From Candidatus Saccharimonadota bacterium (GTDB lineage Archaea > Micrarchaeota > Micrarchaeia > Micrarchaeales > Micrarchaeaceae): a DNA stretch of 32,000 nt. The notes under the pieces were generated by a model. It was not told where the DNA came from. It ran no database searches and worked only from the letters and a program-made list of their open reading frames with translations. The stretch is taken from NCBI GenBank assembly GCA_021654395.1, contig AP024486.1:600001-632000 (forward strand), given 5' to 3'. Below are positions 935 to 20,018 of the stretch, piece by piece. Both the position numbers and the translations under genes were made by a program. The stretch's first letter is position 1; every line of letters starts with the position of its first letter.

Positions 935-2719
935 TTACTTAATATGCTTTATTTGTTTTCTCCTATTTCTTCTTGTTCTTCTATGTTTTTCTCTTTCTTT
1001 AATTCTTCCAGTCTCTCTTTCGTATGCTTCAAATATTGAATCTATTGTTAAAATTCCTTGTAATTTATTGTTTTCTACTACTGGTATCCATCTTGATTTA
1101 TTTCTTCCAAGTACTTCTAATGCATGTTCTAGTGAAGATGAGTAGGATACATAAGGAGAACCTAATGTTACATATTTAGATATTTTATCTGATCTTTTTT
1201 TGTTTTCTATATCTCTTAGATAAAGAATGCCAATGAAGCTATTATTTGAATCTATTACTGGTAAACTTGCTAGGTTATTTTCGCTCATTAATTTGATTGC
1301 TTCTTCTAATGTATTGTTTATGAAGATTTTTATATTATCTATTTTACAATCTTTAACCTTTAATTTTTCCATTATTGGTACTTCATACTCTACTTTATCT
1401 GCTGGAGAATCTTTTCTGGTAGGATATTGTGATGGATATAATGAATATCTTCCTGTTATCACATATGCTATTACTACTGCTATCATTTCTCCAGGTAGTA
1501 ATTGTAGTGACGCTGTCATCTCTGTTACTATAATTATAACTGAAACTGGTGTTTTTGCCGGTGCTCCAAACATTGTGAGTAATCCTATTATAACAAATGG
1601 GGCTACTGTTGGTATTATAGCAGGGAAAAGAATATGAAATATTTCTCCATAAGATGCTCCTATTAATGCTCCTATCTCAAAAGCTGGAGCTTCTATTCCT
1701 CCACTACCACCTGAGCCTATAGTTAATGAAGATGAAATCATTTTTACTATTGCTAATAAAAAAAGAAATAGAATTAATGGTATTCCAAAAGTGTTTATTA
1801 CACTGAAATTTCCTTTATAAAGTATATAATCCCAACCATATCCTGTTCCGATTATTTCTGGAAGTATTATCATAGGAATTCCTGCTAATAGACCACCTAT
1901 AGCTGGTTTTACAAAGTTCGGTAATTTAGTTTTCTTGAAGAGTGTGGTAATAGAGGAGTATATTTTTACAAATACTATGGATAGTATACCTATTACTATG
2001 CCAAATAGCGCGTAAAACGGTAATTGCAGTGGAGAAAATGTGTAAGTGTATACTCCTAAAAATGGTTCAAAGCCTGCATAAAATCCATAAATTGAGTACG
2101 CAATAGCTGATGCGATTATTGAAGGCAAGATTACTTCTGGCTCAAAATCTCTTCTATATAATATTTCAGCTGAGAGTAATGCTCCGCCTATTGGTGCTTT
2201 AAATATTGCAGCAACTCCACTACCTATGCCTATTGCTATTGCTTTTCTTATGTCTTCTGGAGATAAGTGGAGTATTTCAGTTAAAAATGACGCTACAGAT
2301 GCACCTATTAAACCCATAGGTCCTAGGTCTCCTGCACTTCCTCCACTACCTAAAATAATTGTAGAAGAAATCAAATCAATTATAGAGACTCGCTTTCTTA
2401 TCTTTCCAATATTATGATATGCATAGACTGCGTAGTCAATTCCTCCTCCTGCTGCTTCTGGAGCTAATGTGTAAACTATTATACCTGCTATTAGCCCTCC
2501 TAGTCCTACTACTAAAGGTATAAAAAGATTATATGTATAAGAGAATTCTGGATTAAAAGGCTGAGGCAAGCTTATATGAAGAATATAAGTGAGAAAAAGA
2601 GACTTAAAAACTTCATATATGAAAGTAAATAATATGGCAAAAATTCCTATTCCTACACCTATGATAAATCCAAGAATTATCCACTTCTCAAAGTATGGTA
2701 AAGATCTCAATCTATACAT
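935..2719 (-). CDS. ClC-family voltage-gated chloride channel / H+-Cl- antiporter with a C-terminal CBS domain pair
   Basis: 594 aa with about 10-11 hydrophobic helices. Gly-rich selectivity-filter-like motifs GSGGSAGDLGPMG and GSGGSGGIEAPAFEIG. The C-terminal 150 aa has two CBS-like repeats (LASLPVIDSNNSFIGILYLRDI and RWIPVVENNKLQGILTIDSIFEA). Confidence 0.9.
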   Translation of the reverse strand: MYRLRSLPYFEKWIILGFIIGVGIGIFAILFTFIYEVFKSLFLTYILHISLPQPFNPEFSYTYNLFIPLVVGLGGLIAGIIVYTLAPEAAGGGIDYAVYAYHNIGKIRKRVSIIDLISSTIILGSGGSAGDLGPMGLIGASVASFLTEILHLSPEDIRKAIAIGIGSGVAAIFKAPIGGALLSAEILYRRDFEPEVILPSIIASAIAYSIYGFYAGFEPFLGVYTYTFSPLQLPFYALFGIVIGILSIVFVKIYSSITTLFKKTKLPNFVKPAIGGLLAGIPMIILPEIIGTGYGWDYILYKGNFSVINTFGIPLILFLFLLAIVKMISSSLTIGSGGSGGIEAPAFEIGALIGASYGEIFHILFPAIIPTVAPFVIIGLLTMFGAPAKTPVSVIIIVTEMTASLQLLPGEMIAVVIAYVITGRYSLYPSQYPTRKDSPADKVEYEVPIMEKLKVKDCKIDNIKIFINNTLEEAIKLMSENNLASLPVIDSNNSFIGILYLRDIENKKRSDKISKYVTLGSPYVSYSSSLEHALEVLGRNKSRWIPVVENNKLQGILTIDSIFEAYERETGRIKEREKHRRTRRNRRKQIKHIK

Positions 2720-2867: not shown

Positions 2868-2897
2868 GTTTACATCCATCTCTGTATGATTTTATAC
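2868..2897. CRISPR. Orphan degenerate CRISPR repeat, 29/30 identical to the repeat of the array at 7242-8338
   Basis: gtttacatccatctctgtatgattttaTac versus the consensus ...tttagac, a single G>T at 2895. It lies 4.3 kb from the main array and 150 bp upstream of the ClC start. Confidence 0.85.
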
Positions 2898-3005
2898 ATT
2901 CATTCAGGAACCTATTAAGCCAATACATAAGTTTAAACAGATAACGGTTAACTGTTTTATTTTATTTAAGTTAACTAAAAACTTTTAACCTTTTATATAC
3001 AATAA

Positions 3006-3762
3006 TTATTAATTATAATTTCAGTAGCAAACCAGAATGGTGGTTGTAGAAAAACAACTACTGTAGCTAATTTGGGAGCAGTATTAGGTAAAAAATTTAA
3101 GGTATTATTAATAGATACAGACCCGCAGGGAAATTTAACAACATATTTTGGAATTGACAAGAAGAGTGAATATAAAACTATTTATGATGTATTTATCAAT
3201 GGTAATATAGAGGATTCTATAATAAAAAAGGCAATGTAAATATAATACCAAGCACAATAGATTTGGCAGGAGCAGAGATAGAATTAAACGGAAAAATGGG
3301 CAGGGAATACATATTAAAAAAAGAAATTAACAGAATATCTAAAAATTATGATTTTATTATTATTGATACCCCACCAAGTTTAGGTATTTTTTTACAATAA
3401 ATTCATTGGTAGCCTCAGATTATATTATTATACCGGTTCAATCAGAGTCTTTTGCTTTAGAGGGAATGGCACAATTATTAAAGGTAATAAGTTTAGTAAA
3501 ATCAAGATTATCTAATAAACTAAAAGTATTGGGAATATTGTTAACGATGTATAATTCAAATACAAGGTCTTCAAAGGAAGTTTTAAAAGAAGTCAAAAGT
3601 TATTATAAAAAAGAGATTTTTAAAACGATAATACCAAGAAATGTAGCTATTACTGATTCTACTATGGCAGGTTTACCCGTTGTTAATTATAAGAAAGGAG
3701 CTTCAGCTTCAAAATCTTATATTGAATTATCAAAGGAGATTATTAGAAGATTAAAGGTGTAA
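3006..3762 (+). pseudogene. parA: Decayed ParA/Soj-family partition ATPase with two frameshifts, a degenerate Walker A and no canonical start
   Basis: Three frames together read IISVANQNGGCRKTTTVANLGAVLGKKFKVLLIDTDPQGNLT / NVNIIPSTIDLAGAEIEL...YDFIIIDTPPSLGIF / SLVASDYIIIPVQSESFALEGMAQLL...ILLTMYNSNTR...IPRNVAITDSTMAGLPV. The frame changes fall in an A-run (3224-3229) and a T7 run (3385-3391). The deviant Walker A KGGxGKT reads NGGCRKT. A TAA at 3003-3005 precedes the first recognisable codon and no ATG/GTG/TTG follows it. Confidence 0.8.
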
Positions 3763-3764
3763 AA

Positions 3765-4025
3765 ATGGAAAACAAAAAAAGAGGTTTAGACAGTTTAATA
3801 TCGGAAAATTTAGTAGATAATGATGACAAAAAGAAGTATACAAAAACCATTGGTTTTAAAGTAAGTGAAAGGCAGTATGAAACTTATAAAAGATATTCTA
3901 AATATTTTGGAAATAATAATTTATTAAACAAATGGAGAACTGATATTGATAATATTAAAAAGGAAAAAGGCAAAGACTTAGAAAGCATTGAAAATGAAAT
4001 TATTAAAAGATTAAATAAAAATTGA
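3765..4025 (+). CDS. Small ParA partner candidate (ParB N-terminal-peptide-like / ParG-type RHH centromere-binding protein)
   Basis: 86 aa starting 2 nt after the parA remnant, with AAGGTG 8 nt upstream. The N-terminus KKRGLDSLISENL resembles the RGLGxGLdaLi peptide at ParB N-termini. KTIGFKVSERQYETYKRYSKYF has a strand-helix pattern compatible with RHH. Confidence 0.35.
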   Translation: MENKKRGLDSLISENLVDNDDKKKYTKTIGFKVSERQYETYKRYSKYFGNNNLLNKWRTDIDNIKKEKGKDLESIENEIIKRLNKN

Positions 4026-4065
4026 CTAAGACAAAAAGTTTAAATATTAAAATGTTTATATATGT

Positions 4066-4254
4066 GTGATATTTATGACAGACAATCAAAAATTAGGAAT
4101 ACATGCTTTAATGATTCCAGTAGAGATAAAATTACATGAGGAAGTAGATAATTATTTAATCTCAAGAGGTGCTGATAACACAGACAGGGCTATTGTTCAT
4201 GGATTAATGTTTTTAGGAGAAGTATTGTTCCATATAGGATTGGAGACTTCTTAA
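4066..4254 (+). CDS. Hypothetical small protein
   Basis: 62-aa ORF in the same orientation as its neighbours. No motif recognised. Confidence 0.25.
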   Translation: MIFMTDNQKLGIHALMIPVEIKLHEEVDNYLISRGADNTDRAIVHGLMFLGEVLFHIGLETS

Positions 4255-4483
4255 TTTTGTTATTAAACTTGTAATTTAATAACGTATCTGTTTTTTAAAT
4301 ATTATGATTTGTTTTTTTGACTCTCTCTCATGTTCTCTCGAAGAGCCTTACGTATTTTACTCATTCGATACGTTTAATAATTTTACTTATAAAATATATT
4401 ATACAATAGAAGCACAAAGTTTGTTATCTGATGAAAGTATTGTAAAAAGAAAAATAAATAAAAGATTATAATATGGTGCAAAT

Positions 4484-6967
4484 ATGAACGAGGCTACCAA
4501 TGAAAATAAAGAATATGATAGAAAATTAATCCTTTTAGAGAATGATTCAGAGCCATCAATACATAAATTAAAAACAATTTTACAAAGTCCATTAGGATTG
4601 GCACAAGAAATTGCTATTAAATGTTTTCAAACAGAGGATAATAAAGGTTTATTATCATATAAAGATGATTTAGATATATTAAAACGGTTAGGGGCAGGTT
4701 TAGAAAGTGCTATGAATAAAAGTGAATACCCAATCGCAAATTATTCCTCTTATATTTTTGCTTTTCAACAATTTATACATAGCTCATATAGGGCACGGCA
4801 AGGAAATTTCGCAGAGAGTGTAATAAGAGCTATTTTAACTGAAGCAAAAAATGTAAAAGTTTATACAAAAAAAGAACATTCGACTATATCGGAAATTGCA
4901 TTAGGCCAAAAACTTGATAATAAACATGATTTAGATGTTATAGCAAGCAGACAAGATGAGTATCTATTTGTGCAAATAAGATCCAGAGATGATACAGGGG
5001 GAACAACAGCAAAAGGTTCATTAGCTGAATTTTTAAGAGATGTGATTAGAGCTCAGATTATTCCTAAACATTCGATAAGGTATGTTATATTTATATGGGT
5101 AGAACTTCAAGCCGCTCAGAAAGTGTCATTAATAAAAAGGATTTCTAATCAATTGTCTGGTTTTTCATCAATCAGTTCAGATGAAATAGAAAAGAAATTA
5201 TTAATGCAAAAAAAAGTTGAATTATTAAAAAACCTGACATTAGAAGTATGCTATGGTTTTAAAGCGTTTTCAGATATTTTAGGTGAATTTTCTGGTAGTG
5301 ATTCTATTGTAGAAATTTCTAATAGGGTTTTTGCAACATTACAGGATTGGGACGACCTTTGGCTTACATATGCATTATCGACAATAGAATTACAGAATTT
5401 AATCATTAAAAAAATTAATAATTTTAAAATTCTTGAAGAGAAATTACACCAACATAATATTGTCTTAAATGAATCGGATCTATCTAACTACAAGAAAAGA
5501 AGTATAGAAATCGCTCATTTATTATTAGAAGATTGGAAAGAAGATACATTACCTGTCAGAAGTCCAAGAGACCAACTATGGTACATTAGAGATTTAATAT
5601 TAGTAAAAATGCTCTCATACCACAATTATAAAAATAATAAAAATGAGAAAATTAAACCAGATAATTCAATAGGAAAAGAAGGTCAGAATTTAGATTTACG
5701 AAACAATAAAGATTATCCAAATCAATTTAAAGTGTCTTTTAGAAACTTATTTAAATCTAGTATACACTCAACAACTTATGCATCCCATGGAATGTATTAT
5801 TATCCCGCTAAATTTATACCTCAAGTAGTTAGATGGGCTATTGAAAGATATACCAAAGAAGGAGACAATATTTTAGATCCATTTGCAGGTTCTGGCACCG
5901 TAGGAGTTGAAGCATTAATTACTAATAGAAATGCTACATGTATTGATTTAAGTCCTATGTTAAAATATCTGTTAGAAGGAAAAACTTATAGAAATGCTTC
6001 TTTAGAAGATTTATTAAATAAAGCTAGGAAAATAATAGAAAATACAAATATTGAATACTTACCTAAATGGTCAAAAATTGAGTATTGGTATCCCAATGAA
6101 ATATATAGTGTTCTTTTAAAAATGTGGAGTGGATACCAAAATTATAAAAATCCTCTTATTTTATTGGCGTTATTAAAGACCTCTAAAAAATTTTCTTATG
6201 CGGATAATGAAGTACCAAAATTGTTTAGATCCAAGAAAAAAATAGAAGAAATTTCTAAATTATTAAAAACGGATTTTGTTAGGACCATACATAACTATTT
6301 TTTAAAAACAGTAGAAGATATGTATAATTATTCTAATGAATTCAACAAACTGTATAAAGGGGGAAAATTAAATATTTTAGATTCAACAGATATGTTAAAT
6401 TATAATTTACAGGAAAAATACGATCTCTTAATAACATCCCCGCCATACGGTCAAGCACATGAATATATTAGAAGTATTAAATTAGAACTTGGGTGGTTAG
6501 GTTATTCTGATGAAGAAATCAGAGAATTAAGTAAGCATGAAATACCATACAATAATGCGGTACCAGATATAACAATAAAATCTGAAACCTATAACCAGTA
6601 TATAAAGAAGATAGATGGAAAAACTAAAAATTATGCTATAACCTATTTTAAATCAATACTTTATATTTTAGATAAATGCATGAACGCTTTAAAACCCTCA
6701 GGAGTTGCTGCTATTTTTGTCGGGAATGCAACATTTTCAGGTATAGAATTTCCATTCTATCAGATATTTAGGGAACATTTTGAAAGTAACGGTTTTCAAT
6801 TTGAGCTATTATTGGAAGATAGAATTGTGGGCAGAAGATTGTTTAAGGGCCGTAAAAATTTATCACCTGCAGGGATTAAATCAGAATATATGTTAGTAAT
6901 GAGAAAAACTTTGTTTAAGCAAGAAATACAAAATTTAACTTTATATGGAACAAAAAAATTGTTTTAA
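4484..6967 (+). CDS. Single-chain fusion of a PD-(D/E)xK (Mrr-like) nuclease-like domain and an N6A/N4C DNA methyltransferase; type IIG/IIC-like RM candidate
   Basis: 827 aa. The N-terminal pattern GNFAESVIRAIL...HDLDVIAS...YLFVQIRSR matches the G-x-x-F-E ... D-x-D ... Q-x-K layout of Mrr-type nucleases, with R in place of K. The C-terminal half carries HGMYYYPAKFIPQVVRWAIERYTKEGDNILDPFAGSGTVGVEAL (AdoMet motif I, DPFxGSGT) and, about 180 aa later, DLLITSPPYG (catalytic motif IV, SPPY). Confidence 0.8.
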   Translation: MNEATNENKEYDRKLILLENDSEPSIHKLKTILQSPLGLAQEIAIKCFQTEDNKGLLSYKDDLDILKRLGAGLESAMNKSEYPIANYSSYIFAFQQFIHSSYRARQGNFAESVIRAILTEAKNVKVYTKKEHSTISEIALGQKLDNKHDLDVIASRQDEYLFVQIRSRDDTGGTTAKGSLAEFLRDVIRAQIIPKHSIRYVIFIWVELQAAQKVSLIKRISNQLSGFSSISSDEIEKKLLMQKKVELLKNLTLEVCYGFKAFSDILGEFSGSDSIVEISNRVFATLQDWDDLWLTYALSTIELQNLIIKKINNFKILEEKLHQHNIVLNESDLSNYKKRSIEIAHLLLEDWKEDTLPVRSPRDQLWYIRDLILVKMLSYHNYKNNKNEKIKPDNSIGKEGQNLDLRNNKDYPNQFKVSFRNLFKSSIHSTTYASHGMYYYPAKFIPQVVRWAIERYTKEGDNILDPFAGSGTVGVEALITNRNATCIDLSPMLKYLLEGKTYRNASLEDLLNKARKIIENTNIEYLPKWSKIEYWYPNEIYSVLLKMWSGYQNYKNPLILLALLKTSKKFSYADNEVPKLFRSKKKIEEISKLLKTDFVRTIHNYFLKTVEDMYNYSNEFNKLYKGGKLNILDSTDMLNYNLQEKYDLLITSPPYGQAHEYIRSIKLELGWLGYSDEEIRELSKHEIPYNNAVPDITIKSETYNQYIKKIDGKTKNYAITYFKSILYILDKCMNALKPSGVAAIFVGNATFSGIEFPFYQIFREHFESNGFQFELLLEDRIVGRRLFKGRKNLSPAGIKSEYMLVMRKTLFKQEIQNLTLYGTKKLF

Positions 6968-7241
6968 TGTTATATAGAAGTTTAACCTTCCGGTATCTAT
7001 TGAAAAATGAACTGCCAAATTATATCATCACTAATATCCACTATACAAAGATCTGCTGGATATAATAATAAGGAGGAAAAAGTTTTATGTGGAAGATCTT
7101 ATAATGCCTTTGTTCTTTTGCAAGAATATCCGCCATATATTTTCAATATAAGTATATAACTCTTTATATTTTAAGCTTCGGCTCAAATTCACCCCGACTT
7201 CGCTACGCTCAGCCACCCCTCTTTGAGCCTTCGCTAATTAA

Positions 7242-8338
7242 GTTTACATCCATCTCTGTATGATTTTAGACGTATTATGCAATCAGAGAGTTAAAGAAGC
7301 AATAGATAGTTTACATCCATCTCTGTATGATTTTAGACGTATATATTTCTTAAGCATATCAATATACTCAGGCTCTAGTTTACATCCATCTCTGTATGAT
7401 TTTAGACTGTATTCTAAATGGCTTTCTATGTATTCATAGAAATCGTTTACATCCATCTCTGTATGATTTTAGACCTTCTTCTTTTATGCTTTCTGCTTCT
7501 TTGCTCTCTGGTTTACATCCATCTCTGTATGATTTTAGACCTTCTTCTTTTATGCTTTCTGCTTCTTTGCTCTCTGGTTTACATCCATCTCTGTATGATT
7601 TTAGACTAATTAAAGCAATTCTATTCGTGTAAGAGTCTAGCGTTTACATCCATCTCTGTATGATTTTAGACCGAGAGCAATCCTGTTTGTATAGCTGTCT
7701 AACATAAGTTTACATCCATCTCTGTATGATTTTAGACTAGCATCAAAGAATGTTAAAAGATTTCTTAAAAAGTAGTTTACATCCATCTCTGTATGATTTT
7801 AGACCAGATAAGATAAGACAGTATAAACGCCAATATTCTAGTTTACATCCATCTCTGTATGATTTTAGACTAGTGGTATCATATGTATACATACATGCCA
7901 ATGTAGTTTACATCCATCTCTGTATGATTTTAGACCAAAAGATACATGAGCAAAACCTAAATGATATGGAAGTTTACATCCATCTCTGTATGATTTTAGA
8001 CCTGAAACATTTAGTTTTACTCAAAGTTAATATTAAGTGGGTTTACATCCATCTCTGTATGATTTTAGACTAACTTACGAAATAACAAAAACAAATAAAA
8101 GTTTTTATGAGTTTACATCCATCTCTGTATGATTTTAGACGATAATAACAATGCTAATTCTAATGCTAAGTTTAAAGTTTACATCCATCTCTGTATGATT
8201 TTAGACCTACCAGTACTGCAATTTAAGGCATTTGCTAGATATGTTTACATCCATCTCTGTATGATTTTAGACCAAACTACCATAACACAAACTTACGAAC
8301 CGCAATTAGTTTACATCCATCTCTGTATGATTTTAGAC
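7242..8338. CRISPR. CRISPR array of 17 identical 30-nt repeats and 16 spacers of 35-40 nt
   Basis: The repeat GTTTACATCCATCTCTGTATGATTTTAGAC starts at 7242, 7309, 7378, 7445, 7511, 7577, 7642, 7708, 7775, 7841, 7906, 7972, 8041, 8111, 8177, 8243 and 8309. Spacers 4 (7475-7510) and 5 (7541-7576) are identical. Transcription is probably on the minus strand (see findings). Confidence 0.97.
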
Positions 8339-8930
8339 CCAGCCGCAGCTTCGAATACATTTTTGTAAAACATAATAAAAAATTGCTACAAACCTACTTT
8401 TGTGCAAAGATCCTTATATTATTAATATTTTCATAATATCTAAATACCTTTCGTTTTACTCTATTTCTACTAGATCCTGCATGAAAGCTAATGTAATAAG
8501 TGATATACTATAAATTATAATATTATAATACCTCATTGTATTTGTATTTTTTTATATTAAATAAATCTCTTTAATAAGAATACAAGTTTCGAGAGTGATA
8601 CCTAGCTAATGTAATCTATAAGATATAATCTAATATTATTAATGGATAGAAAGAATATATATAATTAAAAATCTTAAGCAAGTTTTACTAATAAAAGTAA
8701 AGCAGGTCTTATATTAAATTAAAAGAGGCGATTAAGTTAAATTTTTTATATTTATTTTGTATTTTGAATAGAGCAAATCGAATTAAATTAAAATAGAAAT
8801 AGATCTGGCTATCTTGAGACAATAAATTAATCTGTTTTTGCTATCTTTAATTTAGTATTCTTTACGTTATAATAAGCTTTATAAAAATTATATCATAAAT
8901 TATATTTAAATTTATAATATGTGCTAATCT
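8339..8930 (-). promoter_or_regulatory. Putative CRISPR leader, if the array is read on the minus strand
   Basis: About 590 bp of very AT-rich sequence with no ORF abuts the repeat end that would be leader-proximal. The only degenerate repeat (2868) lies at the opposite end. Confidence 0.3.
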
Positions 8931-9628
8931 ATGAGTGATTCTAAGCTTGATATAAATCCTTTTGTTCCTCCAAACTTTAGAGAGGAGCTTAAAGATTATT
9001 TAACCGAAATAATAAAAAGAAAAAACGAGTATGATAAAAGAGCATATTTTAAATCTAAGGTTTTAGAAGGATGGCTTAAGATATCTCCAGATCTTATCTA
9101 CTTTGAAAAAGATAGAAAAGATCTATATTATGCAGGTATACTGTTCGAAACTAAGAGTGAACTTTCAGATGCTAAGAGAAAAGTAGCATTTGAAGAACTT
9201 AAAAATTATATAGAAGATCTGTTGAAAAAAGGAGGAAATGTATTTAAAGTTATAATAACAGATGGTGTATAGTTTGAGCTATATGATACTAACGATATAC
9301 TAAATTATAATGAAGATAGAAAAGATAGCTATCAAAAGCTATTAAGCAAAAGAAAATTTCTTATTAACTGACTTTGGAAATAGGCCTGAAGAGGCATACT
9401 ATCTATGTGGTATCTTAAATAGTAAAGTCACTATAGATAAATTTAGAAAAAGTGGAATTAAATCAGAAAGGCAATACAGAAAAAATCTTCGAGATTGGAA
9501 TTCCAGAATATAATGAAAAGAATAAACTTCATAATAAGATTGCAGAATATGCAATGAAATATAAAATGACTAAAGATGAAAAATTATTAGAGAAGATAGA
9601 TGAATTAGTAGAAGAGCTCTTAAAATAG
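8931..9628 (+). pseudogene. Remnant of a type IIG restriction-modification enzyme: the N-terminal nuclease domain is joined to a C-terminal fragment and the methyltransferase core is deleted
   Basis: The N-terminal 113 aa have a PD-ExK-like layout (KDLYYAGILFETKSE ... VIITDGV). An in-frame TAG at 9270-9272 is followed by FELYD, matching the usual TnGxxWxLy pattern. From 9360 the sequence reads EEAYYLCGILNSKVTIDKF and, after a frameshift, KIFEIGIPEYNEKNKLHNKIAEYAMKY...LVEELLK*, typical of the C-terminus of Eco57I/MmeI-like enzymes. Only about 0.7 kb remains of what is normally a gene of about 3 kb. Confidence 0.65.
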
Positions 9629-9784
9629 AACTTATAAATTCCAGTTATAAATACGCTTAAGCAATTTGCTATTTTATTATATGCAGATAGAGATCTTCTT
9701 GCATCCTTAGATAAAATCTAACAGATTACTTAACTTACTTCAAATAAGCTTTATAAAAGCCATCATTTATAAAAATTTAATATT

Positions 9785-9808
9785 TCTAATAATTATTTAG
9801 ATAATCTA
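9785..9808. repeat. Copy A of a 24-nt motif, TCTAATAATWATNTAGATAATCTA
   Basis: Reads tctaataattatttagataatcta and contains the palindrome TAGATAATCTA. An inverted near-copy, tagattatctt, lies at 9818-9828. Confidence 0.7.
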
Positions 9809-10409
9809 TATAATTTTTAGATTATCTTATCTTAATAAGGCATATTAATTAAAATTAAATCTAAAGAAAAGACCTTTATATCAGATTAGCTTAAAGGCTA
9901 TTTAACATATGGTGATTAGAATGACAACGCATGTAAATGCAATAGAACCAGAAGATTTTGAATATATGGGTTAGTAAAGAAGACATAGAAGAAACTAATA
10001 GAAAGCTAGAAGCTGAAAATAAAAAGAAAGAAAATACTGAAATAAGAGATGAAAATCCAGCACCAATACGCTGTGAGCAATAAAGTTAGATCTATAAGTT
10101 AACATTTTATCTTTTTGTTTTTTTAAACATAAAGCTTTTATATCTAGTCTGCGCTTAGTTAATAGATCCATGGTGAGAGATATGGTGAATGTAGAACTTG
10201 CTAGCGAATATGTACCAGAAAAGGTAGATAATCAGGCAAAAGGAGAGGTACCAAAATTTATGGGTAAGCATAAGGGCCGTTTTGAAAGAGATTATCTTAG
10301 AGGAATGGAGTAAAGGGTTTACTTTTTTCTTGTTTTATTATTTGAGTAACAATGTGGTTTAAAAAGTTACTAAAATAAGGATTATTTAAAATAAGAATTA
10401 CAAAACACT

Positions 10410-10658
10410 TTTCATTTTTATGAAAGTCAAAATTAAAGCATATGCTAAAAATTAAGTTTCATTTTTATGAAATTAGCAATTTGCAAGAAATTGCATTTTC
10501 TTCCATATTTTTGAAAAATGGCTTGTTTTAGCAAAATGATCATTATTGCTCCGAAAAAGCATATCAAAAGATATGCTTTTCTCAGGCATCTTAAGATCTA
10601 TTCCATTTTTATGAAAATCTATGATCATAAGCTACTAATCTATTCCATTTTTATGAAA
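10410..10658. promoter_or_regulatory. Cluster of 16-bp palindromic boxes TTYCATTTTTATGAAA: four good copies and one degenerate copy
   Basis: Copies at 10410-10425, 10457-10472, 10601-10616 and 10643-10658; the degenerate copy is near 10501-10520. The half-sites TTTCAT/ATGAAA are inverted around TTTT. The last two copies share the 21-nt atctattccatttttatgaaa. Extra hairpins are gcaatttgcaagaaattgc (10476-10494) and aaaagcatatcaaaagatatgctttt (about 10555-10580). Confidence 0.6.
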
Positions 10659-10854
10659 GCATTAATAGAAGATCATGTAAGTACTAAAATTTAAGTTTAA
10701 TCTAACAAATGATAAGATATTCTAAAATTATCTTAGTATAATCTTTGCTATAATTTTTAATAAACAAGTAAGCTATCTGGAGGAAATTTTGCTATAAAAT
10801 TATATAAAGAAAAGTATTTTATTAATTCTGATATATTGCATATTTGTGGGTTTT

Positions 10855-11025
10855 ATGGTAGATAAGCAAGAAAGCATGGATTATAAGGGAGATACTAAAG
10901 CGCTGGTAGATGCTGCTCCAGAGTTATATGATCTGCTCGAGGAATTGCTAAAAAGGCTCGGAGAGATAATTGAAGATCAATCTAAAGGATATGCGAAAGA
11001 GAATAGCAAAATTAGAAATGATTAG
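10855..11025 (+). CDS. Possible small ORF (56 aa), function unknown
   Basis: Reads MVDKQESMDYKGDTKALVDAAPELYDLLEELLKRLGEIIEDQSKGYAKENSKIRND. It is below the ORF-track length threshold and its composition is protein-like, but nothing else supports it. Confidence 0.2.
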   Translation: MVDKQESMDYKGDTKALVDAAPELYDLLEELLKRLGEIIEDQSKGYAKENSKIRND

Positions 11026-11086
11026 TCTGAAATATTTAAGCTAGTAATAATATTAAAGTTAAAATATGTAAAAGGTTAATTTAATA

Positions 11087-11110
11087 TCTAATAATATATT
11101 AGATAATCTA
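11087..11110. repeat. Copy B of the 24-nt TCTAATAAT...TAGATAATCTA motif
   Basis: Reads tctaataatatattagataatcta, followed by aaattttattaaat, which is similar to the sequence after copy C. Confidence 0.7.
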
Positions 11111-11173
11111 AAATTTTATTAAATCTTTACAATCAAATAATGTTAATATTTTCTTAATCTAGTATATATTGAT

Positions 11174-11197
11174 TCTAATAATTATCTAGATAATCTA
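11174..11197. repeat. Copy C of the 24-nt TCTAATAAT...TAGATAATCTA motif
   Basis: Reads tctaataattatctagataatcta, followed by acaatttattaaat. It lies just 3' of the stop of the minus-strand ORF 11221-12261. Confidence 0.7.
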
Positions 11198-11220
11198 ACA
11201 ATTTATTAAATAAAAGAGCT

Positions 11221-12261
11221 TTACTCTCTTAATCCATAAGCCTTTATTAGTATCTCATTTAGATAATCGTAAACTTCCATCGCTCTAAGCTTTCTATCTT
11301 TTCCTTCTTTTAACTTCTTTAGCTGTTTTAATTTATTGAGTAGTTTTTCAAGGTCTTGTGTGCTTATGATTATCATCTGCCCTTTTATGAATAAAGTTGC
11401 TGTATCATCATCTCTTAACTCAGAACTATCGGCTTTTTTAACTACTAATTCATTATTATTTACATCTACTTTTAACTTTGTAAACGGATTCTGTGCTAAT
11501 TTAGTAAGCTTTTCTATTAATCTGTTAGATTCGGCTTGATTAGCAATACGTGATTCATTAGAATTTGGCTCCCTCTTTAAAAATGATATAGCTAATACAT
11601 ATATACTTTTAATCTTAATCTTCTTGATAGGTTTATTAGATTCACTGGTTGCCTCTTCTCTAATATTCCCTACTGGTTCCTCTACAACCACATGAGAACC
11701 AAATAGCATATCCATATTTGAATTAAGCCTCTTAAAAAATGTAGACATCTGCGGAGAAAATATTTCATTTGCATCCTCTCTGGCTATCTTATCTCTCTCT
11801 AATATCTCTTTAGTATCCTTCTCATTAGCACCTTTGGCCTCTATGTGTAATATACGTAATTCATCATTTAATCCTTTTGGCTCTTCAATCCAATTAAAAT
11901 CTACACGCATACTAGTACTAAGTTTAATCTTTCTCCTACGTGATCCATTATAGAGTGGGCCATGATGCTTTCTATCATATTCATCATGTTTAATCTTAAG
12001 CTTAATATTCTCTTCTCCTAGTGGTTTATCTTTTATATGCTTTTCAATTATATTGTTTACCTCTCTCTCGACAGGTGATTTTATAATTATATCAGATGGA
12101 ATATTATTAAAACTTATTTCGTTTAGTCTTGAATATAACTTACTTGGATCTATAGGCTCTCTTACTCCTATACGGCATAATACTATATATCTCTTTAGGT
12201 TATTACTGCCACTAGCATCTTTAGTGACATTAATACTCATACCTATCTTATAATATAGCAC
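11221..12261 (-). CDS. Hypothetical protein (346 aa), second gene of a two-gene minus-strand unit
   Basis: Long ORF starting 48 nt downstream of the end of the 12310-13113 ORF on the same strand. The charged C-terminal half looks coiled-coil. No family motif recognised. Confidence 0.6.
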   Translation of the reverse strand: MLYYKIGMSINVTKDASGSNNLKRYIVLCRIGVREPIDPSKLYSRLNEISFNNIPSDIIIKSPVEREVNNIIEKHIKDKPLGEENIKLKIKHDEYDRKHHGPLYNGSRRRKIKLSTSMRVDFNWIEEPKGLNDELRILHIEAKGANEKDTKEILERDKIAREDANEIFSPQMSTFFKRLNSNMDMLFGSHVVVEEPVGNIREEATSESNKPIKKIKIKSIYVLAISFLKREPNSNESRIANQAESNRLIEKLTKLAQNPFTKLKVDVNNNELVVKKADSSELRDDDTATLFIKGQMIIISTQDLEKLLNKLKQLKKLKEGKDRKLRAMEVYDYLNEILIKAYGLRE

Positions 12262-12309
12262 TTATATGATATTTATATATTTCATACAGAAATAGCATAT
12301 GTACAACTA

Positions 12310-13113
12310 TTAAACAGTATAAACTCTAATTGGATCCACTGGCTCCTCCTGTAGGCTGCGTACAAAACTAATATCAGAGATATTATTTAAATACCATCCA
12401 TTTACCTCCTCCTTTCCTCTAATTACTCTCCTCTCTGCTTTATCAAGATCATAGATAGTTATCTTATAATCTTTTATTTCTAAGGATCTAAAGAGTATTC
12501 TTACCTCTAAAGGCACATCATTTCTAATCAGATTAAGCTTTCTAAGGCTATTAATAAACTTTTCAAATATCGGATTATCATGAATGTAAAAGCCAGTCCA
12601 AAATACTCCTACTAATCTTTTACCGTCCTTCTTTATCCTCGGTATGAGATGTAAGATATTCAAGCCTCTATTACTTCTTTCTTCTCTTATTGGTATTCTT
12701 CTATTGAGTAATAGATTTAAGGCAAATCTTAGATCAATCTTTATATCTAATCCAAGGAGTGCCATATAAGGATGAAGACCACTTATCTTAATGCTATTTA
12801 TATCATAAGATCTACCTTCTACATCTCTAAGATATTTAGAGTTTATATCTTCAGAGCATACTAGCGTAAACTTTCTATTACTGGGATCTTTTTCATCTTT
12901 TACTACAAACTCATACCAAGGATGGGCTACTAAGTTTAGATATAGCCCTTCATTGATACGTGTGGTTATTGCTTTTTGATTCAAGAACTTAAAGCAATAA
13001 TTTACATTACCCCTATTCCCATAAATAGCCTTTATATTTATATCTGCATTTCTTATTAATTTAAATAATCTTTCATCAGGAATCTTTGGTCTCTCAATAG
13101 ACATATACATCAC
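12310..13113 (-). CDS. Hypothetical protein (267 aa), first gene of a two-gene minus-strand unit
   Basis: Long ORF transcribed divergently from the 857-aa gene across a 490-bp AT-rich spacer. No family motif recognised. Confidence 0.6.
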   Translation of the reverse strand: MMYMSIERPKIPDERLFKLIRNADINIKAIYGNRGNVNYCFKFLNQKAITTRINEGLYLNLVAHPWYEFVVKDEKDPSNRKFTLVCSEDINSKYLRDVEGRSYDINSIKISGLHPYMALLGLDIKIDLRFALNLLLNRRIPIREERSNRGLNILHLIPRIKKDGKRLVGVFWTGFYIHDNPIFEKFINSLRKLNLIRNDVPLEVRILFRSLEIKDYKITIYDLDKAERRVIRGKEEVNGWYLNNISDISFVRSLQEEPVDPIRVYTV

Positions 13114-13602
13114 ATAAAGTTTTACATCTATTATGTAATACTCTTATTATAATTTACATATAAAAAGTTTGCTATTTAATATTATTTAACTGCTTATACT
13201 ATTTCTATAAGATGTAAAACTTATACATTAGATAGTCTGTAAATTTTAATAAAAAGATCTATGATATATTATATATATTTATAAAACTATAATTTAAAAG
13301 TTTGAATCTCTGCATATTAGCAAGATATGGAATAATACATATAAGTGATAACGAAATAATAAAGATGGATAAGAAATATAAAAATATGGATATACACGCG
13401 CTCTTTAAAGATCAGGATATTTTAAAGATTCTACTTCTAAGGTTTTCGAATTCACCTTAAAAATACGTTTAAATTAATAAAAGAGATCTATGTTATTTTA
13501 CAAGACCTATACTTATTGAATATTTAAAGATCTATCATTACATAAAGCAAAGTTTATATATCAAAATCTATTCAAAATTTTATATCATTACTGGTAGATA
13601 TT

Positions 13603-16176
13603 ATGAAAAATATATTTAAAAAGCTTAAACATAAGCATACTGATAAAGCGCTTAATGATTTAATAGAACATCTTAATAACATAAATATAAATGAGCTGTT
13701 GGATGCATATAAAGACGATCGTTCAGCTTTATATAATATTCTAATAGCCTTAAAAGAGGTCTGTTCAAATGAGAGCAAAGAGTATGTATATAATATAAAC
13801 TTAAACTATTTAATAAAAAGATTAGCAGATAATGAAACTAAACGCTTATTTGAAGCTGCTTCTAGATTCAAGAATAAAGACTCTATAAAAATTAGTTTAT
13901 CTCTAATATTAGTTAATACTTTATCTAATTTAAATTTAAGCCAAGACTATGATAAGCTCTTAAAAGCACTTAATAATGTAATAGACTATGACTTATCTAA
14001 AGGCCATAAAGATAATGAAAACTTTGCCTTAGATATCATTGATGTATTAAATAGTATAATTACTTATCGAGATACATTTGGAATGAATGTTTCTAACGTT
14101 ATAGGGCCTTTGCTAGATTATGATAATATTGAGAGATTCAGATCATTTTACGATAATGTAACAGAGGGTAAAAGATTATTTAGATACCTAGATATTATGC
14201 TATATTCATATTCATTATTTGTAAAGCTGAAAGATAAAGAAGATCTAGAACACCTTCTAGATTTATACAAAGGTAGTATTGCAATTAAAAGGTTAATACT
14301 TATAAGATACTTGGCTCTACTTAGGCAGAAAAGTAATAAATATGAATCAGAAAAGCAGCATCTTATTAAGTTCTTTAGTAATAGAGATCTTTTAATGAAA
14401 TCATTAAACCTTGTAAATAAAGATAAAGAGTCTAGGGATAACAATAATCCTGTATATAACTTTTTAACTCTAGATCAAGAGCTTAGCATATCACTGGCTT
14501 ATGAACTATCAAAAAGATACGACGAAGCTAAGGTAGATAGTATACTAGATGCTATCTATAAGGCTGAATTAGATGATAATACCAAGATACAGCTTATGGA
14601 GCTGATTAAAGATCTATCTTACTATGAATTTAGTGGTGGTGATTACATAGAAGCTCTTGTAAAGATTGCAGCTAATAAAGATATTACAGATAAGCTAAAT
14701 AAGAATAAGAGTTTAGCCGCTATGCTGTTCAAAAATTATAAGAAGATATACGACATATTTGGAGATTATAGTATAAATATTATCGAAAGCATAATAAAGA
14801 AGCAGGATATTGAGGCTATTCGAGTAATTGAAGCTATAAATGATATTAATAAAGTCTCTAAGATAGTTAAAAAGGTAGCGTCGAATTTAAAGACTCTAGG
14901 ATATAGAAATAGTGACAAGCTAATAAAGCTAGCCAAATATATAGATATGTATAAAGATGAATTAATTATAGATCCAGGCAAAGATCTGAATTCATTATTG
15001 AGGGATTTAGAAGATAGATTATACAATACAATGATAATGCAAATAAGGAAACGCCTTATTAAAAGGTTAAACCCGCAATATATTAACCTAAATGGCGGAA
15101 TAAGGATAAGAGAGAGAAACGTAGATAGATATGAAAGATCAGTAGCATTCAAATCTCTAAGGTTTATGTCAAAGGATGAGCTATTTAAGTACCAACTCTG
15201 GATAAGTAATAATAAATCTGATCTGTTTGATGCTTTAGTTGGAATTCTAAATCCTAAAAAAGATCTACCGCGTTATGTTTTCAATAATGTAGATATATTA
15301 AGCGATGATTATAAATTAATAGAAGCATCAGAAGCTAAAAGCAATTTAGATAAAATAAAACTAAGGACTAAGCATATAATAGGCAGAATATTAAAACTAA
15401 GTAAAGAAAAAGATATAAACAGATATATATTTAAGAAGCTTAAAAGCTACTCTAAAAGGTTTGGATTTAATTATAAAAATTATTCATATAAGAATACTAA
15501 AGATCTGCTTAAGCTTGCAACAGATCTTAGATCATTTATAGCAAATAAGACAGATACTAAAGAATTTAAGAAATATATAGCAGAGGTTGATAGGCTGATA
15601 CAATATCTTAAAAACAAAGCAGAGCTTGAATCTAGCGATATAAGCATAGTAATGCCTTTAAATATGGTAGAAACTGTAGATGCGTTAGAATTCAATAGAT
15701 CGTGCTTTTCGCCTGGAGGCATGAATCATACATCTGCTTTGTCTATAGCAGCATCTCCAGATCTCTTCTTTATAGGTATATATAAAGATAAAGAGATAGT
15801 GGGAAGAGCAGCAGGATTCTTAGGCTACAGAGCTTATCCATCTCCAGACGATAATAGTTTTCATATAGATACGAGCAAAAAGGTAATCGGACTAGCGAGC
15901 GGCATCTATTCTAGATTTGATATAAGTAAAGATAAGCTTCTTAGAATAATTAGCGAAAAATATGCTAAGGATAACAATTATGAAGTGATATTGAATAGTA
16001 AAGAAAGCAAAAACGAAGAAGAAAAGATATACGTTGCAGTTAGATTATCAAAAAGATTTAAAGAACTACTTTATGGTGATTATATCGCTAGTGTTATATA
16101 TCTAGAAGAAAGCCCAAACATAAGAACAGACGAAGATTTAGATATGTATGAATGGGTTATATTAGAATTGAGATGA
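13603..16176 (+). CDS. Large hypothetical protein (857 aa), mostly helical, with a distinct C-terminal globular module
   Basis: Uninterrupted 2.6 kb ORF. The last 190 aa or so change character (LEFNRSCFSPGGMNHTSALSIAASPDLFFIGIYKDKEIVGRAAGFLGY...). A TATA-like ttttatatc lies about 20-25 nt upstream of the ATG. Confidence 0.7.
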   Translation: MKNIFKKLKHKHTDKALNDLIEHLNNININELLDAYKDDRSALYNILIALKEVCSNESKEYVYNINLNYLIKRLADNETKRLFEAASRFKNKDSIKISLSLILVNTLSNLNLSQDYDKLLKALNNVIDYDLSKGHKDNENFALDIIDVLNSIITYRDTFGMNVSNVIGPLLDYDNIERFRSFYDNVTEGKRLFRYLDIMLYSYSLFVKLKDKEDLEHLLDLYKGSIAIKRLILIRYLALLRQKSNKYESEKQHLIKFFSNRDLLMKSLNLVNKDKESRDNNNPVYNFLTLDQELSISLAYELSKRYDEAKVDSILDAIYKAELDDNTKIQLMELIKDLSYYEFSGGDYIEALVKIAANKDITDKLNKNKSLAAMLFKNYKKIYDIFGDYSINIIESIIKKQDIEAIRVIEAINDINKVSKIVKKVASNLKTLGYRNSDKLIKLAKYIDMYKDELIIDPGKDLNSLLRDLEDRLYNTMIMQIRKRLIKRLNPQYINLNGGIRIRERNVDRYERSVAFKSLRFMSKDELFKYQLWISNNKSDLFDALVGILNPKKDLPRYVFNNVDILSDDYKLIEASEAKSNLDKIKLRTKHIIGRILKLSKEKDINRYIFKKLKSYSKRFGFNYKNYSYKNTKDLLKLATDLRSFIANKTDTKEFKKYIAEVDRLIQYLKNKAELESSDISIVMPLNMVETVDALEFNRSCFSPGGMNHTSALSIAASPDLFFIGIYKDKEIVGRAAGFLGYRAYPSPDDNSFHIDTSKKVIGLASGIYSRFDISKDKLLRIISEKYAKDNNYEVILNSKESKNEEEKIYVAVRLSKRFKELLYGDYIASVIYLEESPNIRTDEDLDMYEWVILELR

Positions 16177-16321
16177 ATATTATTAATAATATAAAAACTA
16201 AAATAAAGTAGATAATCTTTTATTAAGGCTTTATACTCTTTTGTTCTTTCTGCTCTTTTGATATGCACTTAAAACGTAATATATAGCAAATAACTTATAT
16301 GCAATATCTTCACTTATCTTA

Positions 16322-16867
16322 TCATTTGAAGCACTTATATATCTCTATCCTGTAGAATATGTCTCTTAAATCTTCATCTAGCTCACCATACCTTTTTTTG
16401 TACCTCTTATTTAAATCCTCTAATACCTCTTTAATATCCGGATTTTCCATAGCTTCATTAACTATACCATATCTATATAAATCTGTATAATTGAATGTCT
16501 CCTTGAGTTCATCTATATTAAGACCCCTTATCTTTATAATTTCGTTTTTCTTAAGCTTATTCCAATCTTTATCCAAATAGTCAGTTATATCATTTAAAGT
16601 GTCTCTATTTTCTAATAGCTTGATAGCCATATAAAATGCTAAAAGCCCCTTAAAATTACTCTCATCAATATCTGACTTTTCATATACTTTAATAAATAAT
16701 GCGAGCATTCTCTTAAATATTTCCCTGTGTAGCTGCTCTTTAAGGCCACCATATTTATCCTCAAAGTCCTCTTTACAAATGCTCTCTATAATACTTTTAA
16801 CATCTCCTCTACTTACATAGCTAGTGACATACTCATTAAAAAGCACTTTTGGATCGAGGAAATTCAT
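16322..16867 (-). CDS. Hypothetical helical protein (181 aa)
   Basis: ORF only. The upstream in-frame sequence reads ...YKKEIERIKGFLEEH*EALKANGVSLDLIM..., so this may be the tail of a disrupted longer gene. Confidence 0.5.
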   Translation of the reverse strand: MNFLDPKVLFNEYVTSYVSRGDVKSIIESICKEDFEDKYGGLKEQLHREIFKRMLALFIKVYEKSDIDESNFKGLLAFYMAIKLLENRDTLNDITDYLDKDWNKLKKNEIIKIRGLNIDELKETFNYTDLYRYGIVNEAMENPDIKEVLEDLNKRYKKRYGELDEDLRDIFYRIEIYKCFK

Positions 16868-17223
16868 GATCAGGTCTAAACTGACTCCATTTGCTTTTAG
16901 CGCTTCTTAATGCTCTTCTAGAAATCCTTTTATCCTTTCTATCTCTTTCTTGTATGCATCTTCGTTTGAAGATTTGTATCAGAACATATTCGATCACTAT
17001 AACTGAAATGCTGTCATTTCATTAATATAAATTTTGTAAAGCTAATTAACTGATGCCAGATATATCAATATTTCTTTTGTATGTTTAATTAAAGCCTAAT
17101 GAATATAAAATAGCCTTATCTCTTTGTTTTACTATATGCTTTATAATAATTTCTTAATATTAACAAAGCATAAAATGCCAATTAGATAGATTATATAAAT
17201 AAATTAAAAAGCAGAATTATTAA

Positions 17224-18249
17224 TTAATGTATATACATATTTACGTCGTATAACTTTCCAACTTTAAACTTAAGCTCTCTGCCTTTCTCTAATCTTTCTT
17301 TAACAATATCATAGAAATACTCCAATCTTATTGATCTTCTATATATTGTAACACCATGCACTAATGTAACTCCGCCGAAATGATAGTTGAATGTTATAAC
17401 ATTGTTCTTCTTACTTACTGTAGATCTAACGTAATCTTTATACTTATTCCAAAATCCTGTATTTGCTCTACCTTTAATAAATGCAAGATATCTTATAGTT
17501 GACTCTACAGCCCAATCCTCTATAGATTTAGATCTACTTGCATATAACTTTACTGCTTCACTAAAAGAGCTTGTATTATAATCATAGTATAGCGTTTTAT
17601 AAGACTCTTTGAACTCTTCTGTATTCTTAAAGCTTTCTAAGTTATTGCGGTATTCATCAACTAATCTACTAAACTCTTCATTAAATCCTTCAAGATTGTC
17701 TAATAATCCTTTAAGATTTAAGAGCTCTATGTGATTCATATTGAATTCTTTTATTAGCTTTGCAGTAGTATCGAGCGCTCTTTTACTATTATCAAAAGGC
17801 TTTCTTAAAACATTTGCATCGAAAAATTCGTTTTCATATGCTATAACTAATCTGCTTTCTTTACCTGTTATCTGCTCTGCAAAAGACGCAAACTTATTAA
17901 GTCTATTAAGTAAGGCCAACCATGAGAGATCTATATTATTAAATGGTGTCTCAATTGGATTGCCTGATTTGCCTATATAAAGCAATAGCATAAACCTTAG
18001 CTTATCTCTTTTAGTAAGATCTTCTTCAAGCCTTTTAATATCTCCTTCAAATTCAACGAATCTATTTCTCATTAGCTCTTCTATGTTTTTTGGCTCGCTT
18101 TTAAATATTCTTTTTATATCACTCTCAAGAATCTTATCTACTTTTTCTTTATCTAATTCCTCATATTCAAATTCTATCTTAGCATCTGCTACACTCTCTT
18201 CAAATTCATATCTAAACGAACCTATCTCAGGTATTACTCTATCTTTCAA
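17224..18249 (-). CDS. Hypothetical protein (341 aa), shorter member of the GGVTxVHGV paralogue pair
   Basis: Shares ordered blocks with the adjacent 488-aa ORF: LLLYIGKSGNP...LSWLALLNRL, RLVIAYENEFFD and VITFNYHFGGVTLVHGVTIY. It may be remotely similar to the DIT1/PvcA family, but this is unverified. Confidence 0.65.
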   Translation of the reverse strand: MKDRVIPEIGSFRYEFEESVADAKIEFEYEELDKEKVDKILESDIKRIFKSEPKNIEELMRNRFVEFEGDIKRLEEDLTKRDKLRFMLLLYIGKSGNPIETPFNNIDLSWLALLNRLNKFASFAEQITGKESRLVIAYENEFFDANVLRKPFDNSKRALDTTAKLIKEFNMNHIELLNLKGLLDNLEGFNEEFSRLVDEYRNNLESFKNTEEFKESYKTLYYDYNTSSFSEAVKLYASRSKSIEDWAVESTIRYLAFIKGRANTGFWNKYKDYVRSTVSKKNNVITFNYHFGGVTLVHGVTIYRRSIRLEYFYDIVKERLEKGRELKFKVGKLYDVNMYIH

Positions 18250-18331
18250 CTAGATACACCTAATAGATCTCATTAGATATATCTTTATTTTCTTAATATT
18301 TTTATATCTTCTTTGTGGCCATTTTCTATTA

Positions 18332-19798: not shown

Positions 19799-20018
19799 CT
19801 CGTTAAAAATATATAATACGAAAGAACTGATATATAAAACTTATCTACAACGAGAGCAGGATTTACCTATTTCAGAGTATTCAACTAAATTAATAAACCT
19901 ATGTAATTAACAAAAATAAAGCTTTTATTAGCTATACATACAATTAATCTTTAAAAATTTGAAAGTTAAGGTAATTAAATCTTCAATATAAACACTTAAA
20001 AAGCCATTATAGTAAATT

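Follow-up and report, generated by a model that had tools for sequence, protein, structure and literature searches.

The CRISPR array and its orphan repeat

We analyzed a 32 kb window (the whole stretch of DNA presented here, numbered from its first base) from the closed, 814,439 bp genome of the DPANN archaeon ARM-1, in which a clustered regularly interspaced short palindromic repeat (CRISPR) array is separated from a single orphan copy of its repeat by 4.3 kb of plasmid-type DNA (2936-7238, called here the cassette or the insert). ARM-1 is a thermoacidophilic DPANN symbiont of Metallosphaera, obtained in a two-member co-culture, and its genome was closed from PacBio and MiSeq reads (PMC8784108). 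The genome has been reported to contain a subtype I-B cas operon (cas1-7) and CRISPR repeats, with the cas genes located outside the window (PMC8784108). The features of the array and of its borders are as follows.

7242..8338, minus strand: CRISPR array of 17 identical repeats (30 nt each) separated by 16 spacers (35-40 nt)
2868..2897, minus strand: orphan CRISPR repeat, 29/30 identical, with G to T at plus-strand repeat position 28
2898..2930, minus strand: candidate stranded spacer, 33 nt, or 38-40 nt if GTTTA is counted as spacer
8339..8930, minus strand: AT-rich leader containing a conserved block and a TATA-like box ~60-90 nt from the first repeat
2928..2935, no strand: left copy of the 8-mer TAAGTTTA, its last five bases (2931-2935) being the first five of the repeat
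7239..7246, no strand: right copy of the 8-mer TAAGTTTA; its first two bases, 7239-7240, may alternatively mark where homology to the element family described below stops

The 30-nt repeat, GTTTACATCCATCTCTGTATGATTTTAGAC, occurs in 17 perfect copies between 7242 and 8338, and shuffled sequence gave 0 matches. The orphan repeat is followed by 33 nt (2898-2930; ATTCATTCAGGAACCTATTAAGCCAATACATAA) and then by GTTTA (2931-2935), which are the first five bases of a repeat, and the intact array resumes at 7242; the initial annotation had placed all of these features correctly. Matches of at least 18/30 to the repeat, either to the left of 2868 or within the cassette, were no commoner than in shuffled sequence.

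As comparators for the array we used seven loci from JGI metagenomes that carry a 2-nt variant of the repeat. The right flank of the ARM-1 array (8339 onward) aligned with the flanks of the related arrays L005, L007 and L009, including a conserved block and a TATA-like box, and in L005 the corresponding flank adjoins the genes cas1-cas4-cas3-cas5-cas7-(unassigned 496-aa open reading frame (ORF))-cas6. Because this flank is conserved in the three related arrays and adjoins cas1 in L005, we placed the leader at 8339-8930, to the right of the array, which would then be read leftwards from the minus strand. With the leader on the right, the orphan repeat-spacer unit therefore lies on the trailer side, and the orphan repeat may be read as a stranded terminal (trailer-end) repeat, for which slight degeneracy is expected. 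Scans of the 32 kb window with Pfam, PADLOC and other profiles found no cas genes, and the window contained no tRNA (ARAGORN) and no Rfam family. A bacterial promoter and terminator scan was uninformative for this archaeon.

Since repeats are classic sites of mis-joining, one explanation for this arrangement is an assembly artefact, in which the cassette was joined wrongly to repeat sequence at 2935 or 7239. Logan contigs do break within the orphan repeat, at 2896 and 2869. However, a single Illumina-only Logan contig (DRR248898_2976, from MiSeq run DRR248898) corresponds to window 2869-7268 with 0 mismatches and runs unbroken from the orphan repeat through both junctions into the first array repeat. 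Because this contig crosses both junctions and the closed assembly combines PacBio and MiSeq reads from a two-member culture, an assembly join at either position is very unlikely, and we give the artefact next to no weight. The junctions, which the initial annotation had noted could be assembly joins, are thus very probably features of the genome.

Two observations were made on the array and its assembly. The Illumina-only contigs that end inside the orphan repeat (L002 stops at 2896 and L001 begins at 2869, within region 2866-2899) do so despite the fact that the T-variant repeat is unique within the window. Such breaks in a k=31 graph imply a second source of the 32-mer composed of C, the variant repeat and A; this source could be a further copy of the variant repeat in another part of the genome, perhaps as the last repeat of the cas-linked array, or it could be recurrent read errors in the 17 normal repeats. 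Within the array, two adjacent 36-nt spacers (7475-7510 and 7541-7576) are identical, which is a tandem duplication of one repeat-spacer unit.

Content and relatives of the cassette

The closest relatives of the cassette were integrase-bearing elements located at tRNA-Ala genes in Thermoplasmatales-type metagenomes (L012 and L023). These elements begin with tRNA-Ala, a tyrosine integrase, small ORFs, a VirB4/CedD-like ATPase, ParA and a 90-aa gene, and continue with a resolvase, an Orc1/Cdc6-like initiator, a methyltransferase fusion, a MazE-like gene and a long GC-rich, hairpin-dense region; the 90-aa gene is followed by a 168-aa gene in L012 only, and by a 59-aa ORF in L023. The 3′ end of the L012 tRNA-Ala(CGC) is present three times (79-100, 15353-15374 and 18383-18404), and we therefore conclude that the family integrates at tRNA-Ala by means of its own integrase. 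The 22-bp att repeat of L012, TCAAATCCCGACCGGTCCATTT, is absent from the ARM-1 junctions. Relative to these elements, the cassette contains the following features.

2936..2956, no strand: near-perfect palindrome AACAGATAACGGTTAACTGTT, arms matching at 9/10 with one more pair if A2935 is included, then a second GTTAAC box
3012..3759, plus strand: parA pseudogene, ~66-70% identical to L012 ParA over three frames
3765..4025, plus strand: intact 86-aa ORF, 65% identical to p90 of L012, the 90-aa gene after parA
4397..4468, plus strand: remnant of an Orc1/Cdc6-type initiator gene (last 24 codons), matched by tblastn to residues 345-368 of the L012 368-aa protein at 67%
4484..6967, plus strand: intact gene for an 827-aa fusion, 66% identical to its family homologue, with an N6/N4 DNA methyltransferase as its C-terminal half
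7174..7235, plus strand: GC-rich hairpin unit 1, GGCTCAAA-TTCACCCC-(insert)-ACCCCTC-TTTGAGCC

The cassette is homologous to and collinear with the part of the L012 and L023 elements that extends from ParA to the first hairpin, and with that part only: ParA, its 90-aa partner, the Orc1/Cdc6 tail, the methyltransferase fusion and the first hairpin stand in the same order, and the proteins are ~65-69% identical to those of one contiguous block. The intervening DNA is therefore mobile-element DNA, and the plasmid-type cargo that the initial annotation had listed (a decayed parA, the small gene after it and a methyltransferase-fusion gene) is present and homologous to a single plasmid-like block. 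In contrast to its relatives, the ARM-1 copy has no integrase, VirB4/CedD-like ATPase, resolvase or MazE-like gene, lacks most of Orc1/Cdc6 and the remainder of the structured region, and sits neither at a tRNA nor beside the family att repeat.

The cassette shows decay. Its parA has lost the start codon (ATG to ATT), contains two frameshifts (~3227 and ~3391) and has a deviant Walker A motif in which KGGCGK has become NGGCRK, replacing the signature lysine. The following 86-aa ORF had no Pfam, PHROG, NCBIfam or PDB match, and its position suggests that the product may be a centromere-binding partner of ParA. Between 4026 and 4396 the p168 gene, the resolvase gene and most of the Orc1/Cdc6 gene have been lost; the 368-aa initiator of L012 matches the Orc1/Cdc6 family TIGR02928 at 7e-29, which is below the NCBIfam cut-off. 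The MazE-like gene of the relatives is also gone from the cassette, and of their structured region the window keeps only hairpin unit 1 (85.5% identical to L019-L021, with two exact or near-exact blocks common to L023-L025), everything beyond it being missing. Only the 86-aa gene and the 827-aa fusion gene are intact, together with the one conserved hairpin. The GC content of the cassette is 27.6%, compared with 41-45% in the relatives, and we therefore consider that it has resided for a long time in AT-rich genomes. Pfam, PADLOC, PHROG and NCBIfam scans of every ORF in the cassette identified no transposase, the insert and the window likewise contained no integrase, Tns protein or other recombinase, and tblastn of all L012 proteins gave matches in the cassette only.

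Judged from these comparisons, the cassette is the decayed remnant of a plasmid-like element. It is not a self-contained mobile element, as might have been supposed, but an internal piece of a larger family, carrying an internal deletion and having no integrase, transposase or terminal inverted repeats. When the cassette DNA (2936-7238) was searched against databases, as the initial annotation had proposed, plasmid collections gave only generic parA matches, phage collections nothing and IMG/VR only distant methyltransferase relatives.

Several additional features of the element family were noted. At ~18.5 kb L012 contains a second block with an Orc1 tail and methyltransferase, 80% identical over 280 nt to 8460-8739. 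Together with the three tRNA 3′ ends, this indicates that related elements have integrated in tandem or within one another at a single tRNA gene. In all relatives of the cassette the MazE-like gene is followed by ~450 nt of highly conserved, GC-rich non-coding sequence dense in hairpins, located at L012 11556-12040, L013 4035-4520, L014 3854-4290, L015 2997-3490 and L024 3215-3700. This region comprises two stem-TTCACCCC-(variable tip)-ACCCCTC-stem units and, after them, a long-range helix domain that has clean hairpin-tip deletions in L014 and a G.U-compatible change (plus strand) in L013. No Rfam family matched the structured region, and covariation gave 2 compensatory pairs of 101, from sequences too similar for the test. 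The region could be a structured RNA, a single-strand origin or a recombination site. In the ARM-1 cassette, hairpin unit 1 is far better conserved than the surrounding coding DNA; a tRNA fragment or known RNA at this GC-rich right end was considered and rejected, since ARAGORN and Rfam returned nothing there.

The junctions and the probable splitting of the array

The two copies of the 8-mer TAAGTTTA that the initial annotation had reported (2928-2935 and 7239-7246) are both present and in phase with the repeat. From base composition the probability of this 8-mer is 1.0e-4, and from its plus-strand copies outside the array it is ~2.5e-4 per position; GTTTA alone, at a spacer-like distance from the orphan repeat, would be expected by chance with an estimated probability of ~0.02-0.03 (p(GTTTA) = 0.0022, ~10 positions) and is weakly significant. 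Homology to the element family begins ~10 nt inside the left junction, at inverted repeats resembling a par operator, and ends at 7239/7240, 1-3 nt ahead of the first array repeat. This right end falls between hairpin unit 1 and the large structured domain present in all relatives, and bases 2898-2935 have no similarity to the family. The bounds of the insert are internal points of the family map rather than family att sites. No terminal inverted repeats were detected, a local alignment between the ends scoring 10 as compared with a shuffled mean of 12.4.

The palindrome at 2936-2956 does lie at the left junction, but it is not a signature of insertion: it aligns with the GTTAAC and TAAC(C/G)GTTA inverted repeats that precede parA in L012 and L023. 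It is the conserved operator- or centromere-like site of the par module, and not an insertion scar.

We favor, with a probability of roughly 0.6, the interpretation that a once-contiguous type I-B array was split near its trailer end by illegitimately integrated DNA of a small plasmid, which later decayed. The donor would have been a plasmid-like maintenance module (par operator, parA, partner gene, Orc1/Cdc6, a restriction-modification (RM)-type fusion, a MazE-like gene and the structured GC-rich region), and the insert corresponds to the family's replication, partition and stability block, for which existence as a small plasmid is plausible. One illegitimate integration event, with this small plasmid as a circular intermediate, would have taken place by crossover at the 8-bp identity TAAGTTTA, spanning the border between the last spacer and the second-to-last repeat, and would have left one copy of the 8-mer at each junction. 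The 8-bp direct repeat had been likened to a target-site duplication; the repeat is real, but a plasmid crossover at an 8-bp identity gives the identical picture, and a staggered-cut insertion that duplicated 8 bp would have the same appearance, such that sequence alone cannot separate the two. In the order of events that we infer, parA would then have been inactivated and the initiator, resolvase and MazE genes deleted. Before insertion the site would read ...CATAA-GTTTACATCC..., precise loss between the two 8-mers would yield ...CCAATACATAA-GTTTACATCCATC..., and a circle formed by excision would show the junction CTTCGCTAAT-TAAGTTTA-AACAGATAACGG. The present ends of the insert are most simply the original ones, because a deletion crossing a junction would destroy the 8-mer repeat and not create one.

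Several points weigh against this interpretation. A spacer of 33 nt is rare, being the length of 1 of 80 spacers of this repeat family; even so, we estimate that duplication of the 8-mer accounts for the left junction better, by one to two orders of magnitude, than a spacer of 38-40 nt combined with a blunt insertion (~1/80 versus ~2.5e-4). The edges of the 8-mer can also be assigned to the insert, on the right for its first one or two bases (T7239 and A7240) and on the left because A2935 can be read as an extension of the palindrome. Neither the insert nor the window encodes any recombinase able to carry out the insertion, and the insert has lost internal DNA, so its ends could be secondary too. 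Furthermore, no uninterrupted array and no close relative of ARM-1 were found in the genome, metagenome and protein collections searched: the exact repeat was absent from GTDB species genomes, in which loci linked to the neighbouring ClC chloride channel gene were only ~60% relatives; the repeat core recovered from JGI metagenomes only the 7 loci with the 2-nt variant, which had different spacers and no common flanks; and the nearest of 5.8 billion proteins to the ClC protein was 72% identical and from Sulfolobales.

The loss of internal DNA raises the possibility that the junctions are secondary, being scars of deletions that trimmed a larger element, or several stretches of foreign DNA, beside or within the array, or that they belong to an independent relic; the partial repeat and 8-mer would then have arisen by chance. 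Deletions within the cassette are clear (Orc1/Cdc6, resolvase and p168 between 4026 and 4396, and MazE), the cassette has none of the family's integrase and transfer genes, its right end truncates the structured region after the first hairpin, and the ClC gene across the orphan repeat also looks acquired, as if the region gathers foreign DNA. Yet two separate deletions would need endpoints no more than 8 nt apart, in phase with the repeat, and would also have to regenerate an identical 8-mer, and neither the shuffle test nor tblastn of L012 proteins detected further decayed repeats or pieces of the element, either between the junctions or near them, which leads us to regard this explanation as doubtful. 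A different reading of the same repeats is that a CRISPR repeat carried by the plasmid recombined homologously with the terminal chromosomal repeat, in which case the array was extended and not split, and 2898-7241 is all plasmid DNA, comparable to a 4.3 kb 'spacer' between two full repeats. Two full-length direct repeats do bracket the insert (2868-2897 and 7242-7271), the repeat family also occurs as mini-arrays apart from normal ones (L006), and the odd 33-nt spacer would no longer be needed. None of the 18 fetched cassette relatives, however, contained a repeat-like sequence at 20/30 or better, bases 2898-2935 are unlike the element family, and the in-phase 8-mer at both junctions would be a coincidence (~2.5e-4 per position); recombination between repeats is thus unlikely. 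The L006 mini-array (780-877) consists of two copies of a related repeat, one degenerate and one full, separated by a 41-nt spacer, and stands mid-contig on a 1.3 kb metagenome contig without a leader-like flank.

Active, repeat-directed insertion by a transposon, by a phage or plasmid integrase or by Cas1-Cas2 would account for an 8-bp direct duplication, which is typical of many transposases, and for a breakpoint at the spacer-repeat border, where Cas1-Cas2 acts; there are also precedents (bioRxiv 10.1101/2020.10.09.333658; PMC11837452). We consider it quite improbable, since no transposase, Tns, integrase or cas gene is found in the insert or window, terminal inverted repeats are lacking (the alignment score of the ends is below the shuffled mean), both bounds of the insert lie at internal positions on the map of the family, and the family integrase uses tRNA-Ala and a 22-bp att unrelated to the junction. 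Cas1-Cas2 would moreover duplicate the whole 30-nt repeat at the leader end, whereas this site is at the trailer end. Marks of Cas1-type or casposon-like insertion are missing as well (8 bp rather than 30 bp or a 14-15 bp target-site duplication, no terminal inverted repeats and no cas1 in the window). The identity that an attP core could share with the repeat comprises 5 nt, or 8 nt with the spacer end. There are similarly long odds against the broader proposal that repeat borders in ARM-1 are preferred landing sites, through breaks or half-site intermediates of the adaptation machinery or through a repeat-recognising recombinase, at which plasmid fragments with other defence genes, here a fused RM-type enzyme, are captured and domesticated beside arrays. 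If true, this would be a concrete route for the growth of defence islands in reduced genomes, and the junction hairpin would be part of the capture process or of the expression of the retained module.

Two further candidates were tried and rejected. Self-targeting or spacer-protospacer recombination was rejected as a route, as no spacer matched the cassette or its relatives beyond chance 11-14-mers; the stranded spacer (2898-2930) likewise had no match to the cassette, the fetched loci or viral contigs. An IS200/IS605-like or hairpin-end transposon was rejected given that the structures at the two ends are conserved within the plasmid family, where they occupy internal positions, and that TnpA and TnpB are absent.

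If plasmid DNA was integrated in this manner, the 16 spacers between the leader and the insert should be unaffected and normally placed. The oldest spacer would lie 4.3 kb away behind a 5-nt repeat remnant, from which no mature CRISPR RNA could be formed, and read-through from the array would run antisense to the cassette genes. The cost to CRISPR function would be minimal because the oldest spacer alone is lost.

Insertion sequence (IS) elements interrupt CRISPR arrays, for example those of Sulfolobus and enterobacteria. Such interruptions resemble the ARM-1 case in that foreign DNA with a short flanking direct repeat stands inside an array, but the ARM-1 insert has neither a transposase nor inverted ends. 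Streptococcus pyogenes prophages of the PhiAP1.1 type use the CRISPR repeat as attB (bioRxiv 10.1101/2020.10.09.333658; PMC11837452). There too a mobile element lies within a CRISPR repeat, the array is split and the adjacent spacer cannot be processed; however, PhiAP1.1 is an intact prophage with its own integrase and an attP matching the repeat, and it silences all downstream spacers, whereas the ARM-1 insert is a decayed plasmid fragment with no integrase and 8 bp of identity, and cuts off the last spacer only. Cyanobacterial Tn7-like transposons that target CRISPR arrays are minimal, cargo-free TnsABC/TniQ elements that insert in spacers (PMC11837452). They share with the ARM-1 insert a location inside the array, for a share of the elements near the last repeats, with the newest upstream spacers intact, but the ARM-1 insert consists of cargo only and has no Tns genes or transposon ends. 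The ARM-1 case is thus one with the same outcome as known array insertions and none of their machinery. The initial annotation had considered it an unusual interaction between mobile DNA and a defence locus; plasmid-derived DNA with an RM-type gene does lie in the array, although the kind of event is already known.

To the known cases of mobile DNA in CRISPR arrays the locus contributes an archaeal one without an integrase; by itself it raises no new question. It also speaks for plasmid traffic into a reduced symbiont genome, with the closest relatives in Thermoplasmatales-type metagenomes and not in the Sulfolobales hosts of ARM-1. What survived decay is an RM-type gene beside a CRISPR array, a small but concrete instance of the clustering of defence genes.

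The methyltransferase fusion and the flanking genes

The 827-aa ORF is 100% identical to BCS91177.1, annotated as 'modification methylase MjaII'. The initial annotation had described it as a nuclease-methyltransferase fusion. Its methyltransferase half is well supported (Pfam N6_N4_Mtase PF01555, 3.5e-19; PADLOC MTase_II, 1.8e-35), but the nuclease half is not supported to the same degree. The N-terminal 385 aa (gene region 4484-5641) had no PDB match by sequence, and although the model of this part has a pLDDT of 90, all Foldseek matches were weaker than 1e-3; the Type II endonuclease EcoO109I was the best informative one, with a weak match (E 0.01-0.07, probability 0.98, TM 0.3-0.4), followed by McrC (E 0.1-0.6). 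Foldseek of the whole protein was informative for the methyltransferase half only. D149 and Q164-x-R166 of the fusion are invariant in 36 homologues. From the predicted structure, a restriction-endonuclease-like domain, possibly of the PD-(D/E)xK type, is a plausible assignment for the N-terminal half. The protein resembles fused RM enzymes of the Type IIC/IIG-like kind in having an N6/N4 methyltransferase half within a single polypeptide, EcoO109I in the predicted structure of its N-terminal part and MjaII in its product name, but the structural match is weak (E 0.01, TM 0.3-0.4).

Sites of the GGNCC type are the targets of both EcoO109I and the MjaII methylase. The EcoO109I structural neighbour and the MjaII product name together point, by analogy, to possible GGNCC-type recognition by the fusion. 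The 32 kb window contains only 11 GGNCC sites, two of which (6282 and 6847) are inside the fusion gene. That this gene is intact amid decay suggests that it may have been kept by selection. Acidophile metagenomes commonly contain homologues with 62-67% identity, one cluster of which includes Acidiplasma. BCS91177 is not mentioned in the proteomics supplement of the ARM-1 cryo-electron tomography paper.

A ~12 kb block (8931-21137) on the right of the leader, beside the cas-less array, is made up of eight ORFs (113-857 aa). None had a significant Pfam, PADLOC or PHROG match; the 113-aa ORF had a sub-threshold Pfam match (E 0.007). On the other side, the left flank outside the insert contains one further gene.

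935..2719, minus strand: ClC chloride channel with CBS domains (Pfam Voltage_CLC, 9.8e-77; CBS)

The best homologues of this channel are from Sulfolobales (72% identity in Acidianus manzaensis, 58-61% in Sulfurisphaera and Acidianus), DPANN being absent among the top hits, and the GC content of the gene (~0.32-0.37) is higher than that of its surroundings. The ClC gene beside the array trailer therefore looks like an acquisition from the host lineage.

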